Below are positions 23,915 through 28,210 of a DNA stretch of 44,975 bases, one piece after another; the stretch's first letter is position 1; the number at the start of each line of letters is the position of its first letter. Made by a program: the position numbers and the translations under genes. Source of the stretch: a virus. The notes beneath the pieces were generated by a model. That model did not search any database. It was given only the letters and a program-made list of their open reading frames with translations, and had not been told where the DNA came from. The stretch is taken from the UHGV virus genome UHGV-0285350. One strand, given 5' to 3'.

Positions 23915-24096
23915 TTTATCACCCCGCCGCCGCGGGGTGCTGAACTCCCCCAGCAGTACCCACCACACCAGACCGTTTACCCTGTCCACTCAGACCACAA
24001 GGCACCTTAAGGGATAGCGCCCTGCAAAAGGCTTATGTGCCTTTGACAGGGTGTTATTTACGGGCCGTCAGTGGCTCAGATTTACAGGAGAAACTC

Positions 24097-24489
24097 ATGT
24101 CTGAACCCTTATCAGGCGGCGGAGCTGTGGCAGTCACCATCGGTGGTGCCAGTGTGTTTGGCCTTCTCACCAATACCGATTTCGGGGTCGTGGTGGGCGC
24201 GTTTGCCGGGGCGCTTTTTGTTGTCACGCAGCAGAAAGAAATCCCGGTCTGGCGAATGGCTATCCACCTGCTCGTCGCGTTTGTGGTTGGCGTTCTGGGG
24301 GCTGGCGTGGCTGCGTCACTGATGCAGTGGCTGACCCACTACAACGACAAGCCACTCGATGCATTGTGTGCGGTCGGTGTCTCGGCGTTATCCATCAAGA
24401 TACTGACCTTTCTTTATCAACAGGAAATTTCATCGCTGTTCGGCCTGTTTTCCAGACTGCGCGGCGGAGGGGGTGGAAATGGAAAGTAG
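24097..24489 (+). CDS. holin-like membrane protein (3-4 TM, Gly-rich tail)
   Basis: ATG 7 nt after GGAG; hydrophobic segments; first gene of lysis cassette. Confidence 0.5.
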   Translation: MSEPLSGGGAVAVTIGGASVFGLLTNTDFGVVVGAFAGALFVVTQQKEIPVWRMAIHLLVAFVVGVLGAGVAASLMQWLTHYNDKPLDALCAVGVSALSIKILTFLYQQEISSLFGLFSRLRGGGGGNGK

Positions 24490-24775
24490 CCTTGCCGGTA
24501 TCGTGAACGTCTGGCTGTGTCTCGCCATTGTGCTGGGGTTGTTTGTGTATCGCCGCCACGGTGCGGCGCATGAGCCGATGATTACCTGGCTGGCGTACTG
24601 GCTGATGCTCGGCTACATCATCATCCCGTTCCGCTGGCTGTCCGGTACATACACGCACTCCAGCTGGCTGGTTGTGGCGCTGAATCTGGTTTTCTGTGCG
24701 CTTATCGTGTGGGCGCACGGGAATTTGTCAAAAATCCTTTCGTTACTGAGGCATCCACATGAAATCAAAAGATGA
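24479..24775 (+). CDS. lysis-associated membrane protein (holin/antiholin-like, 2-3 TM)
   Basis: ATG after GGAGGGGGTGG; hydrophobic segments; overlaps neighbours. Confidence 0.5.
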   Translation: MESSLAGIVNVWLCLAIVLGLFVYRRHGAAHEPMITWLAYWLMLGYIIIPFRWLSGTYTHSSWLVVALNLVFCALIVWAHGNLSKILSLLRHPHEIKR

Positions 24776-25304
24776 CATTTTTGATGAAGTCCTGGGCAAA
24801 GAAGGCGGTTACGTCAATCACCCGGATGATAAGGGCGGCCCGACCAAATGGGGCATTACGGAAAAAGTCGCCCGTGCCCACGGATACCGTGGCGATATGC
24901 GTGAGTTAACCCGCGAACAGGCGCTGGACATCCTTGAAGCCGATTACTGGTATGGCCCGCGATTTGACCAGGTAGCAGCGTTATCCCCTGATATTGCCGC
25001 AGAGCTGTGTGATACCGGTGTGAATATGGGGCCATCCGTGGCGTCCAGAATGCTCCAACGCTGGCTGAACGTTTTCAACCTGCGCGGCAGGCTGTACCCG
25101 GATATGGACGCAGACGGACGCATCGGACCTCGTACCATCAGCGCATTGCGCGCCTTCCTGAATAATCGCGGTCAGGACGGTGAACGGGTGATGTTGACAG
25201 CCCTGAACTGCACGCAGGGTAACCGCTATCTGGAGCTGGCAGAGAAACGCGAGGCTAACGAATCGTTTGTTTATGGCTGGCTGAAGGAGCGCGTGGTGGT
25301 ATGA
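24759..25304 (+). CDS. endolysin (GH108-type N-domain with EGGY motif plus peptidoglycan-binding C-domain)
   Basis: LGKEGGYVNHPDDKGGPTKWGIT matches the GH108 signature; C-terminal region resembles a PG-binding domain. Confidence 0.8.
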   Translation: MKSKDDIFDEVLGKEGGYVNHPDDKGGPTKWGITEKVARAHGYRGDMRELTREQALDILEADYWYGPRFDQVAALSPDIAAELCDTGVNMGPSVASRMLQRWLNVFNLRGRLYPDMDADGRIGPRTISALRAFLNNRGQDGERVMLTALNCTQGNRYLELAEKREANESFVYGWLKERVVV

Positions 25305-25483
25305 CGCGTCAGCGCTGGACCCACAGAACGCCACGTAAAGCCGCCCGCTGTGTTCTGGCCCTGTTTCTGGTGATGTTGCTTCCGGTGGGATGCACAGACA
25401 TTAACAGAGCAGGACAGCTGTTAGACGCGGCAGCGCAGGTCTGCCGGATTATTGACGGCATCCGGCAGTGTTCACAGAGCTGA
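25301..25483 (+). CDS. outer-membrane lipoprotein, o-spanin (Rz1)-like
   Basis: Basic N-terminus, hydrophobic core and lipobox LLPVGC; ATGA overlap with endolysin stop. Confidence 0.55.
   Translation: MTRQRWTHRTPRKAARCVLALFLVMLLPVGCTDINRAGQLLDAAAQVCRIIDGIRQCSQS
25424..25483 (+). repeat. 60-bp direct repeat, copy 1 (3' end of o-spanin-like gene)
   Basis: gacgcggcagcgcaggtctgccggattattgacggcatccggcagtgttcacagagctga; 56/60 identical to copy 2. Confidence 0.7.
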
Positions 25484-25515
25484 ACATCTGCCAGTTGTTT
25501 CACTAAGGAGAAGTT

Positions 25516-25704
25516 ATGGCATCACCAGTTATGAAATATTTCGCTTATGAACATCTTCCGGCTTCGTTACAGGAAGTGAGTAAACCGATTGGCGATCTGG
25601 CAAGAAAAATGGATGAGTCTCTGCCAGACGGGCCGGAAAAGTCAGTCGGGTTACGTAAATTGCTGGAAGCAAAAGATGCTTTAGTCCGGGCGAAACTGGG
25701 TTAA
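25516..25704 (+). CDS. hypothetical small protein (62 aa) located between the two 60-bp repeat copies
   Basis: ATG after AGGAGAAG; no motif recognised. Confidence 0.45.
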   Translation: MASPVMKYFAYEHLPASLQEVSKPIGDLARKMDESLPDGPEKSVGLRKLLEAKDALVRAKLG

Positions 25705-25730
25705 TGACTTAACAAGGCTACCAATTTTTT

Positions 25731-25790
25731 GACGCGGTAGCGCAGGTCTGCCGGATTATTGACGGTATCCGGCAGTGTTCGCAGAACTGA
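25731..25790 (+). repeat. 60-bp direct repeat, copy 2
   Basis: gacgcggtagcgcaggtctgccggattattgacggtatccggcagtgttcgcagaactga; contains internal hairpin ctgccggat...atccggcag. Confidence 0.7.
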
Positions 25791-25810
25791 TTTTTTGAAG
25801 GTCTGACACA

Positions 25811-26017
25811 GTGAGCATTATCAGATTTACAGAATACAGAGGTTCAGGAGGTGCTGGCGCTGTCATGGTGCTCGCTGAACGCATCACCCATTTTTACCGT
25901 CAGTACGGTACACATGATGGCACGGTCATTGAACTGGATACCGGGAAAAACGTGTTCGTTCTTGAAAATCCCGACGAAGTTCAGCGCAGGATTGAACAGG
26001 CTCAGAAGGACACTTAA
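25811..26017 (+). CDS. hypothetical protein
   Basis: GTG start; stop overlaps next ATG (TAATG). Confidence 0.45.
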   Translation: MSIIRFTEYRGSGGAGAVMVLAERITHFYRQYGTHDGTVIELDTGKNVFVLENPDEVQRRIEQAQKDT

Positions 26018-26517
26018 TGGCGTGGTCACAGGATATCAGGGACAAAGTCCGTAACGGGTACATCTTTGACCAGCTTCCGCTGGATATCGTCGCCATGAAG
26101 TACGCCGTACCGCACGATACCGCGCGGCGCTGGAAAACGCAGGCAATGAAGAACGGCGACGACTGGGACAAGCTGCGGGCCGCGCACGCGCTCGCCGGTG
26201 ACGGGCTGGAAAGTGTCGCCCGCACCGTGCTTATCAGTCTGGTGGTGAAGTGTCAGACGACGCTTGAGCGGCTGAACCAGAACCCGGACATCCCGCCGCA
26301 GGAGTCCGTCGAACTGCTGGCGAGTCTGTCTGACAGTCTCAGTAAGGCGGTGGCCAGCAGTAAAAAAATCCTGCCGGAAACCGACCGGCTCGCCACGGCA
26401 CTGGAAGTGGTGCAGCGGCTCGGCGCGTTCATCAAGGAGCGTCACCCGGCACAGTATGCCCCGTTTCTTGAGGTGCTCGAAGGCTTCGCTAAAGAGCTTG
26501 AGGATAATTTCAGTTAA
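26017..26517 (+). CDS. terminase small subunit-like protein (Mu gp27 position)
   Basis: Immediately upstream of terminase large subunit; N-terminal HTH-like region; positional plus weak motif evidence. Confidence 0.55.
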   Translation: MAWSQDIRDKVRNGYIFDQLPLDIVAMKYAVPHDTARRWKTQAMKNGDDWDKLRAAHALAGDGLESVARTVLISLVVKCQTTLERLNQNPDIPPQESVELLASLSDSLSKAVASSKKILPETDRLATALEVVQRLGAFIKERHPAQYAPFLEVLEGFAKELEDNFS

Positions 26518-26551
26518 CCACAGCGGCCCGGTTTTCCGGGCCGTCTGATAT

Positions 26552-28210
26552 TTGTATACCAGGTGTGACGTGGCAAAACGTAAACTTTCCATTAAAGAGT
26601 TTCAGAGAAGCTTACAGGAATACATCGCCAACCTCCGCCAGACCATCGAGGCTGAATGTCTGGGGTTCGATGTTAACCCGCAGGCCACACAGGCCCGTCG
26701 GGCGGCAGTCTGCGACCCGGTGACGGGCTACGATTATTTTGTCGAAAACTATTTCCCGCATTACGTCCGCAACCCGGCAAAAAGCGAGCTGCATAAATAC
26801 CTGTTCAGCCGTCTGCCACAGGTTGTGGCAAGCCCTGACCCGGAGAACGACGCCATCGCCGCGCCCCGTGGTGAAGCAAAATCCACGCTGGTGACGCAGC
26901 TGTTTACCCTGTGGGCCATTATCCGGGCCATTAAGCATTACCCGGTCATCATTATGGACAGTATCGACCAGGCTTATCCGATGCTGGAAGCCATCAAGGC
27001 TGAACTGGAATTTAACCCCCGTTTAAAAAACGATTTCCCGGAAGTGTGCGGGCAGGGTCGCGTCTGGCGTATGGGGACCATCGTCACGGCCAACAATATC
27101 AAGGTGACCGTTGCCGGTAGTGGTAAAAAACTGCGTGGTCTGCGCCACGGCCCGTACCGTCCTGACCTGGTTATCCTCGACGACATCGAGAATGACGAGA
27201 TGGTGCGTAACCCGGAGCAGCGCGACAAGCTGCACGACTGGCTCACTAAAACCGTGATGCCGCTGGGTGAGGCTGGCGGTAAAACCGATATTATTTATAT
27301 CGGGACCATCCTGCATTACGACTCCGTGCTGTCGCGCACGCTGAATAACCCGATGTGGAAAACAGCCCGCTTTAAGGCTGTTATTCAGTGGCCTGCCAAC
27401 ATGAAGCTGTGGGACGAGTGGGAAGAACTCATCCGCAACAAACAGCCGGAAGCGGCGGAGGCACTTTACCGGCAGAACGAAGCCGAGATGCTCGCCGGGT
27501 CAGTGGTGTCATGGGCGGCGCGCCCCCTGCTGGCACTGATGAAAATCCGTGTCCGTGACGGTCATGACACCTTTGATTCTGAATACCAGAACGACCCGGT
27601 CAGCGGTGAAGACGCGCTGTTTGCGGGCTGCATTAAGTTCTGGGTTAACCGTCTTGATGAATGGGTGTTTTATGGTGCGGTTGACCCCAGTCTCGGGAAG
27701 AAAAACAAAAACCGTGACCCGTCGGCCATTCTCGTGGGGGGCTTTAACCGCTTTACCGGCATTCTGGATGTGGTTGAAGCCGATATCCGCCGACGTCTGC
27801 CAAACAAACTTATCGAAGACGTGATTAAGTATCAGCGGGAATATCACTGCCTGTGCTGGTCGTTTGAGTCCGTCCAGTTTCAGGAGTTTCTGCGTACCGT
27901 GCTGGTTGAGCGTTCGGCAGCGCTGGGCGTGCCGGTTCCGGCGCTGCCGGTCATCCCGCTGGAGGATAAGGCACTGCGTATCGAATCCCTTCAGCCGCAT
28001 ATGGCCAACGGCCTGATTCGTATCAGCCACACACATCAGACGCTGATTGACCAGCTGCGCCACTACCCCAAAGCTGACCACGATGATGGCCCGGACTGTC
28101 TGCACATGCTGTGGACGCTGGCGGTTTCGCGTAGCGCAAAATTTCAGATACACACCCCACGCAGCAGCGGGCGTGACCGTGGCGGGCGTTTTGGTTCAGG
28201 AGGATGGTAA
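26552..28210 (+). CDS. terminase large subunit
   Basis: ATPase motifs APRGEAKST (Walker A-like) and VILDD (Walker B) with C-terminal nuclease-like region; 552 aa; start codon uncertain (TTG 26552 or GTG about 26567). Confidence 0.85.
   Translation: MYTRCDVAKRKLSIKEFQRSLQEYIANLRQTIEAECLGFDVNPQATQARRAAVCDPVTGYDYFVENYFPHYVRNPAKSELHKYLFSRLPQVVASPDPENDAIAAPRGEAKSTLVTQLFTLWAIIRAIKHYPVIIMDSIDQAYPMLEAIKAELEFNPRLKNDFPEVCGQGRVWRMGTIVTANNIKVTVAGSGKKLRGLRHGPYRPDLVILDDIENDEMVRNPEQRDKLHDWLTKTVMPLGEAGGKTDIIYIGTILHYDSVLSRTLNNPMWKTARFKAVIQWPANMKLWDEWEELIRNKQPEAAEALYRQNEAEMLAGSVVSWAARPLLALMKIRVRDGHDTFDSEYQNDPVSGEDALFAGCIKFWVNRLDEWVFYGAVDPSLGKKNKNRDPSAILVGGFNRFTGILDVVEADIRRRLPNKLIEDVIKYQREYHCLCWSFESVQFQEFLRTVLVERSAALGVPVPALPVIPLEDKALRIESLQPHMANGLIRISHTHQTLIDQLRHYPKADHDDGPDCLHMLWTLAVSRSAKFQIHTPRSSGRDRGGRFGSGGW

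Follow-up and report, generated by a model that had tools for sequence, protein, structure and literature searches.

A duplicated lipoprotein gene end as the likely scar of an illegitimate joint that brought a small gene into a phage lysis cassette

In a virus genome of 44,975 nucleotides (UHGV-0285350; the whole of this stretch is referred to as the window), a 62-aa open reading frame, ORF62, stands at the end of the lysis cassette between two copies of the 3' end of a lipoprotein gene. We consider it likely (at a probability of roughly 0.78, judged from sequence comparisons) that this repeat was left as a scar by one ancestral illegitimate, i.e., non-homologous, joint between two related phage lysis cassettes. 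The initial annotation had read the arrangement as the footprint of an insertion by recombination. The gain of a gene by recombination holds, as relatives are 307 bp shorter and the second copy of the repeat is a relic, while an insertion that duplicated its target does not, as in donor phages the lipoprotein gene and ORF62 are already adjacent. Coordinates of the features are collected in Table 1.

Table 1. Features at the end of the lysis cassette (positions in the window).
Feature	Position	Strand	Description
60-aa lipoprotein gene	25301..25483	+	ORF; lipobox LPVGC; 3 Cys in a mature part of about 30 aa; final resident gene of the cassette
Repeat copy 1	25421..25483	+	3' end of the functional lipoprotein gene, 20 codons and stop; allele resembles the empty-site L001 type
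Hairpin, copy 1	25441..25468	+	stems 25441-25449 and 25460-25468, 10-nt loop; encodes C-R-I-I-D-G-I-R-Q
Spacer	25484..25515	+	32 nt; AAGGAG ribosome-binding site at 25505-25510; first bases of the putatively foreign segment
ORF62	25516..25704	+	62 aa; putatively captured gene; phrog_1761/5120; GC 46%, GC3 0.40
Tail after ORF62 stop	25705..25727	+	23 nt, TGACTTAACAAGGCTACCAATTT; some BLAST alignments reach 25719
Repeat copy 2	25728..25790	+	apparent untranslated relic of the recipient lipoprotein gene end; native upstream context of ORF68
Hairpin, copy 2	25748..25775	+	stems as in copy 1; loop differs by C>T
68-aa ORF (ORF68)	25811..26017	+	phrog_7691; directly 3' of the lipoprotein stop in empty-site relatives

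The window is a mosaic prophage, given that it combines Mu-type late genes with an early region that is not Mu-like (RecA-dependent nuclease, DUF968, PAPS reductase and methylases); the non-Mu early part covers positions 1-23000 and the Mu-type late and morphogenesis genes 22214-44975. The gene order runs from GemA and a Mor/C-type late activator through Phage_holin_8, Phage_holin_3_7, a GH108 endolysin with PG_binding_3, the lipoprotein (phrog_7528), ORF62 and the 68-aa ORF (phrog_7691) to DUF1804, the large terminase, a Mu-type portal, Mu F, the tail sheath and a GpP-type baseplate protein. With two holins, the endolysin and the lipoprotein upstream, and DUF1804 and the large terminase downstream, the locus does lie at the end of the lysis cassette, where it had first been placed. 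Several variations surround this backbone in relatives (loci from other genomes carry L numbers): Mu-type late genes occur with Ead/Ea22 lambdoid genes (L006, L013) or MuB/Kil (L009), the lysis backbone is paired with either a GH108 or an M15 endolysin (L002, L004, L011), and an IS66 element lies just upstream of the first holin in two carriers (L005/L008:1-2554). A second polymorphism is found less than 1 kb from the repeat, namely a 741-bp N6_N4 DNA methyltransferase gene which in many relatives (e.g., L001:2508-3248, L002, L004, L011) stands between DUF1804 and the large terminase and which is missing from the window and L003; the corresponding gap in the window, 26517-26552, holds a G+C-rich hairpin at 26523-26544.

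The lipoprotein itself has homologs of 88-97% identity in 20 IMG/VR loci, matches phrog_7528 (E 1.6e-40) and hit no Pfam or NCBIfam family. O-spanins are outer-membrane lipoproteins encoded in the lysis cassette together with an i-spanin partner (which has an N-terminal transmembrane domain and a periplasmic coiled coil). Of these features, a lipobox and a place after the endolysin are seen here, and the only PHROG match is to phrog_7528, which is labelled 'unknown function'. No i-spanin-like ORF was evident at 24759-25811 in the ORF list or in domain and PHROG matches; the cassette at 24037-25483 consists of two holins, the endolysin and the lipoprotein, with no recognisable i-spanin partner.

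A repeat search of the window gave a direct repeat of 63 nt with 58/63 identical positions (92%), a start-to-start spacing of 307 and 244 nt between the copies; the earlier figures (60 bp, 56/60, about 250 bp downstream) describe the same feature at a slightly low size. A 41-nt core of the repeat occurs exactly two times in the window when up to 3 mismatches are allowed (0.00 expected from 100 dinucleotide shuffles). Other elements of the first reading were confirmed: the duplicated segment is the 3' end of the lipoprotein gene including its stop codon (copy 1 being the last 20 codons and the stop, and copy 2 lying in the same register), ORF62 is situated between the copies at 25516-25704, and each copy contains a hairpin with a perfect 9-bp stem and a 10-nt loop, CTGCCGGAT-N10-ATCCGGCAG. 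The window holds about 14 distinct perfect 9-bp hairpins including this one (25 overlapping hits vs. 1.9 expected under a first-order Markov model). At position 12 of each copy (25432 and 25739) the window and L013 have A (GCA, GTA), where every other carrier or empty site has G; this could reflect a short intragenomic gene conversion or shared ancestry.

The two copies differ in state. Copy 2, when read in the register of the lipoprotein, gives FDAVAQVCRIIDGIRQCSQN and a stop, and it is untranslated, given that an in-frame TAA lies upstream (25710-25712) with no start codon after it; it is part of no listed plus-strand ORF. Substitutions specific to the relic are found at its 5' end (copy 2 positions 6, 8 and 11) and, in other carriers, as Cys>Tyr and Gln>Arg. 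Altogether, copy 2 has about 4 nonsynonymous changes of its own and 1 synonymous one, the Cys>Tyr among them; none of these was ever seen in functional genes. One copy is thus part of an intact gene, while the other is truncated, untranslated and evolving neutrally, as looked for in a recombination scar, and on this comparative evidence copy 2 appears to be a truncated, drifting, dead leftover of the lipoprotein gene end. Its 3' part tracks the alleles of empty sites (L002 type in the window, TCA-insertion type in L015 and AGC type in L123), and these matches to circulating alleles suggest that copy 2 still serves as a homology anchor for exchange with phages lacking ORF62. For annotation, the 63-nt relic should be called neither a gene nor a regulatory repeat.

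Relatives without the insert have the arrangement from which such a relic could derive. When we searched positions 25250-25900 against complete E. coli genomes with megablast, 55 records matched, none of which covered the query fully, and the best matches spanned 344 bp against 651 bp in the window, a difference of exactly 307; known carrier genomes such as CP057408 are missing from this collection, so carrier frequency cannot be estimated from it. A single lipoprotein gene was found in the four E. coli loci read (L001-L004) and in 19 of the 20 IMG/VR lipoprotein loci, and at these empty sites TGATTTTTTGAAGG and the next gene come immediately after it. Specifically, in L001, L002 and L004 the gene ends in ...CAGAACTGA, directly after which TTTTTTGAAGGTCTGACACA and the GTG start codon of the 68-aa ORF are found, the same adjacency being present in 15 IMG/VR loci. 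The comparison with related prophages lacking the insert that had been proposed as a check hence returned relatives exactly 307 bp shorter, with one lipoprotein gene abutting the 68-aa ORF, and the length missing in these collinear relatives is one repeat unit plus the ORF62 segment. A different gene follows the lipoprotein in L003: a 106-aa gene (phrog_1935) replaces the 68-aa ORF after the lipoprotein stop there (L003:1756-2076) and in L102, L104, L105 and L110, behind the same linker, TGATTTTTT(T/G)AAGGT. Since either gene can follow this linker, the lipoprotein stop looks like a recurrent exchange point.

The exact ORF62 protein was found in 423 index blocks, and we examined 14 carriers (the window, L005-L015/L101 and L123). 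All 14 have identical junctions at a spacing of 307: ...CTGA joined to ACATCTGCC after copy 1 (also written as ...CTGA joined to ACATCTGCCAGTTG) and ...CCAATT(T/C) joined to TTTGA before copy 2 (also written as ...GGCTACCAATT(T/C) joined to TTTGA). Such uniformity, again as looked for in a recombination scar, argues for one ancestral event. One carrier has an M15 rather than a GH108 endolysin and the early regions vary among carriers, which points to a single event that later would have spread into different backgrounds by homologous recombination. The base composition of the insert is foreign: it has 44% GC against 55-60% in the flanks, and the GC3 of ORF62 (0.40) compares with 0.62-0.75 there. 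The spacer after copy 1 (25484-25515), missing in empty-site relatives, is homologous to the spacer between lipoprotein and ORF62 in donor-type phages, with L161-L164 the closest.

These donor-type phages carry ORF62 in another setting. Among 317 ORF62 relatives in IMG/VR, six loci match the window at about 81% from 25385/25415 to 25704, i.e., over the lipoprotein 3' end, the spacer and ORF62, with the match ending at the ORF62 stop; variants of ORF62 at 90-95% identity led to further donor-type loci in Salmonella and metagenomes. In the 12 donor-type loci analysed (L016-L019, L024, L035, L153, L155, L159-L161 and L163) the lipoprotein 3' end, spacer and ORF62 are contiguous (77-88% identity to window positions 25415/25485-25704), the lipoprotein end is present in a single copy, and homology ceases at the ORF62 stop, with an intact hairpin next. 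Their cassette comprises holin_8, holin_3_7, an M15 or GH108 endolysin, a lipoprotein of the same PHROG as that of the window (phrog_7528) and ORF62, and the packaging genes are unrelated to those of the window (GpA, Terminase_2, or HNH with Terminase_4). In these non-Mu phages, then, lipoprotein, spacer and ORF62 form the natural end of the lysis cassette. Relatives with the same arrangement but no duplicated gene end, which the initial annotation had named as evidence against its reading, were found only among these non-Mu donors, in a different downstream context; they explain the origin of the insert and do not refute a recombination footprint. Both parental arrangements thus exist in nature, the recipient one as the empty sites and the donor one as lipoprotein, ORF62 and hairpin with a single lipoprotein end. 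We found no donor more than about 88% identical over the spacer and ORF62, and none whose sequence after ORF62 matches the 23-nt tail of the window, so that the position of the donor breakpoint is inferred.

The donor hairpin lies directly 3' of the ORF62 stop, as GGCATTACAGCAGCCC-loop-GGGCTGCGATAATGCC. Across 28 phages it covaries, with double compensatory changes in 5 of its 11 predicted pairs, and it has no match in Rfam. The stem-loop CATTAC-CAGCAGCCC-loop-GGGCTGCG-ATAATG and its variants occur after ORF62 in L016-L074 and L153-L163 (e.g., L017:3190-3230); given that sequences diverge completely right after it, the stem-loop marks a module boundary, and it may act as a terminator without a U tract, an RNA stabiliser or a recombination hot spot. 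In the window only 23 nt remain between the ORF62 stop and copy 2, and the 3' arm is gone; from a loose resemblance, this tail is probably a degenerate 5' arm of the hairpin, cut by the joint. A separate observation concerns L161-L164 (e.g., L161:2380-2500), where an internal deletion has removed the lipoprotein gene from the lipobox on and joined what is left of it to the ORF62 spacer, ORF62 itself being intact, so ORF62 does not depend on the lipoprotein.

We propose the following course of events. The donor would have been a temperate phage whose cassette held two holins, an endolysin, a small lipoprotein and ORF62 with its structured hairpin, and the recipient a phage with Mu-type late genes and a cassette of the same kind ending in the lipoprotein gene, directly followed by the 68-aa ORF. 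Upon recombination between the two, the right joint would have been illegitimate, with a site in the donor hairpin, about 23 nt past the ORF62 stop, becoming linked to the recipient lipoprotein gene 63 nt short of its stop, while the left side could have been resolved by homologous recombination across the common lysis genes. The product would be an intact lipoprotein gene, ORF62, a 63-nt dead lipoprotein tail and ORF68. Copy 1 and everything upstream of it are of Mu type in the window (95-97% identical to empty-site alleles) and not of donor type, so under the model homologous recombination must afterwards have exchanged the sequence all the way to the stop codon; crossovers with phages lacking ORF62 may have replaced donor sequence as far as the stop of copy 1, the last shared homologous base. 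Continued homologous recombination would also refresh the 3' part of copy 2 and partly homogenise the repeat. The comparisons directly show the presence or absence of exactly 307 bp, the junctions common to all carriers, the donor arrangement, the decay of copy 2, the foreign composition of the insert and purifying selection on ORF62; we infer the order of events, the breakpoint within the donor hairpin, the replacement up to the copy 1 stop and the refreshing of copy 2. The model predicts a donor phage in which ...GGGTTAATGACTTAACAAGGCTACC continues into the loop and the complementary 3' arm rather than into TTTGACGCGG, and it predicts that recombination between the copies would delete exactly 307 bp.

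Other accounts of the repeat fit less well. It is improbable that a free ORF62 segment (25484-25727) was inserted and 63 bp of its target duplicated by staggered breaks, repair synthesis or a transposition-like event. A direct repeat around a foreign AT-rich segment does have that look, but the homology of the spacer after copy 1 to the donor spacer, where lipoprotein end, spacer and ORF62 are contiguous, means that the linkage between copy 1 and ORF62 predates the event and that no target duplication is needed. Transposable elements have terminal inverted repeats, a transposase and a target duplication of about 2-14 bp. Here a duplication of 63 bp far exceeds those made by transposases, and neither terminal inverted repeats nor a transposase adjoin the insert. 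We therefore rejected a transposon with target-site duplication as a candidate, on the lack of inverted repeats at the insert ends, the length of the duplication (63 nt) and an only inner ORF that encodes a 62-aa helical protein.

A marginally weaker case can be made for the 63-nt unit with its hairpin being a functional site (attC-like or for another recombinase, an RNase site or a terminator) that directed the insertion of the cassette or RNA processing. The perfect 9-bp stem is kept in both copies and is invariant in all Mu-type alleles except for one G.U wobble: in 37 genomes the only one of the 18 stem positions to vary gives the G.U pair, against 15 variable positions of 45 outside (Fisher p = 0.026). 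The native hairpin after ORF62 has been lost, moreover, and that of copy 2 now lies 43 nt past the ORF62 stop. Against this, the stems encode C-R-I and I-R-Q, and when only third codon positions are counted the difference is 1/6 against 9/14 (p = 0.14), while changes specific to the relic fall in the stems in 0 of 5 cases (p = 0.19). The hairpin is missing from donor-type lipoprotein genes, neither junction coincides with a hairpin, one being 20 nt upstream and the other 15 nt downstream, and only one insertion event is seen. A terminator scan calls nothing at either copy, Rfam gives no match, and fold z-scores of the sense strand are only -1.2 to -2.0. The suggestion that the hairpin might be a recombinase or RNase site consequently found no support, its conservation not being statistically separable from protein-coding constraint, and a role of the hairpin in the recombination event seems unlikely.

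Two classes of such sites were considered as candidates in their own right. An attC site is an imperfect palindrome with R''/R' core sites (RYYYAAC / GTTRRRY) at the cassette boundaries and an IntI integrase nearby. Direct repeats around a single small ORF, each of them hairpin-forming, do resemble a transposon or an integron cassette, but the repeat is 63 nt of coding sequence, the event was single and the junctions lie off the hairpin. GTTRRRY and RYYYAAC occur once each in the region, at chance level and without conservation across alleles (the GTTRRRY match at 25420 reads GTTTGAC in most alleles), and the window proteins that were scanned include no member of an integron-type integrase family; the integron cassette was rejected on these grounds. 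An intrinsic terminator is a G+C-rich stem-loop followed immediately by a U tract; this candidate was rejected for the repeat hairpins, at which the scan calls none and where the T6 run of copy 2 starts 15 nt past the stem.

As improbable as a functional site is an ancestral carrier arrangement from which relatives lacking ORF62 arose by recombination between the repeats, which would remove exactly 307 bp and leave the exact empty-site structure, and with which the exchange between the 3' part of copy 2 and empty-site alleles agrees. Against it, the fusion of the truncated gene end in copy 2 to the ORF68 leader requires that lipoprotein and ORF68 had met at an intact junction before the repeat arose, the relic markers (T6, T8, T11, TAT and CGG) are absent from all empty-site alleles, empty sites outnumber carriers by 19 to 1 in IMG/VR, and the insert is of foreign base composition.

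With the illegitimate joint as the preferred reading, the acquisition of ORF62 can be placed among known routes of gene gain. A moron is an extra gene that is absent in collinear relatives, deviates in base composition and has its own promoter and terminator for expression from the prophage. ORF62 is likewise an extra small, AT-rich gene between genes that are adjacent in collinear relatives, located at the boundary of the lysis and packaging modules, and in other phages a conserved leader and a 3' hairpin accompany it. Of the moron hallmarks we found presence/absence and deviant composition but no promoter and terminator of its own: the 3' hairpin is cut here, and consensus scans of 25484-25810, which are weak evidence, gave no sigma-70-like or terminator-like site. 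Such genes and 'moron accretion' in temperate phages were reportedly described by Juhala et al. 2000 and Hendrix et al. 2000. To our knowledge, classical morons have not been described with a flanking 63-nt duplicate of the end of a neighbouring gene. Scars of novel phage joints are mostly removed or go unnoticed. Rad52-like recombinases are reported to generate mosaicism between phages by illegitimate or relaxed-homology recombination (De Paepe et al. 2014). The locus resembles such mosaicism in having one non-homologous joint beside homology, spread into GH108 and M15 and into Mu-type and lambdoid-early backgrounds, and differs in that the joint left a visible partial gene duplication.

The conservation and position of ORF62 allow a guess at its role. 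Its dN/dS of 0.03-0.14 indicates strong purifying selection. The protein belongs to a very large family, with 3,381 homologs, none of which has a name, and 4,416 clusters at 50% identity. Relatives are spread over 309 phage records (Vibrio, Acinetobacter, Erwinia jumbo, Brevibacterium, Gordonia and Mycobacterium phages among them), with 72% identity to gp78 of Mycobacterium phage Nazo and 84-89% to Xanthobacter proteins. In many enterobacterial phages ORF62 closes the lysis cassette, its immediate upstream neighbours being Rz-type spanin genes or the small lipoprotein. The lipoprotein stop and the ORF62 start are only 32 nt apart in the window, and ORF62 is most likely expressed with the rest of the late lysis operon. 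Searches for Pfam, NCBIfam and PADLOC families and for a trace in the literature returned nothing for ORF62. An AlphaFold2 model (pLDDT 96.8) shows a short helix and then a two-helix hairpin, with no specific match among solved structures. Our best guess, which goes by position and conservation alone, is that the protein is soluble, expressed late and has an accessory or host-interacting role.

A more specific identity was considered in the Acb2/Tad1 hairpin-domain sponge proteins (Pfam PF24729; T4 Vs.4, PDB 7UQ2), for which the binding of cyclic nucleotide immune signals by an oligomer is a defining trait. These, like ORF62, are small phage proteins, and ORF62 is predicted to have a short N-terminal helix and two long antiparallel helices. 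Foldseek against BFVD gave weak ORF62 matches to entries labelled Acb2/Tad1 hairpin domain (TM 0.63-0.69), and 10 of 88 ORF62 family members had sub-threshold matches to PF24729, those checked scoring 12.5-17.9 bits against a cutoff of 27. ORF62 itself had no hit to PF24729, and hhalign against T4 Vs.4 and its family gave a probability of 0.3%. With scores below the gathering cutoff of 27 and this hhalign result, membership is not supported. A broader reading, which we regard as rather unlikely and yet worth considering in view of the identities to mycobacteriophage and Xanthobacter proteins, the number of clusters and the lack of annotation, is that ORF62 belongs to a very large, as yet unnamed class of phage host-manipulation proteins (e.g., an Acb2-like small-molecule sponge or a lysis-timing factor), that the repeat keeps it in a precisely removable and exchangeable 307-bp cassette where the lysis module ends, and that the copy 2 hairpin could replace the lost 3' stem-loop of the ORF62 transcript.

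The capture of ORF62 is a moron-like gain via an illegitimate joint, a well-known route of ordinary phage mosaicism. It is unusual for the sequence still to reveal the scar together with the two parental arrangements and the homogenisation that came later. The locus is therefore a clean natural teaching and benchmark case for the gain of a gene by a phage module. The remaining interest lies mostly in the uncharacterised ORF62 family and in the covarying 3' hairpin that accompanies it, outside Rfam, in many enterobacterial phages. Found in phages of Proteobacteria and Actinobacteria, and with a confidently predicted fold but no Pfam family, solved structure or literature trace, the ORF62 family is a good candidate for functional screening.
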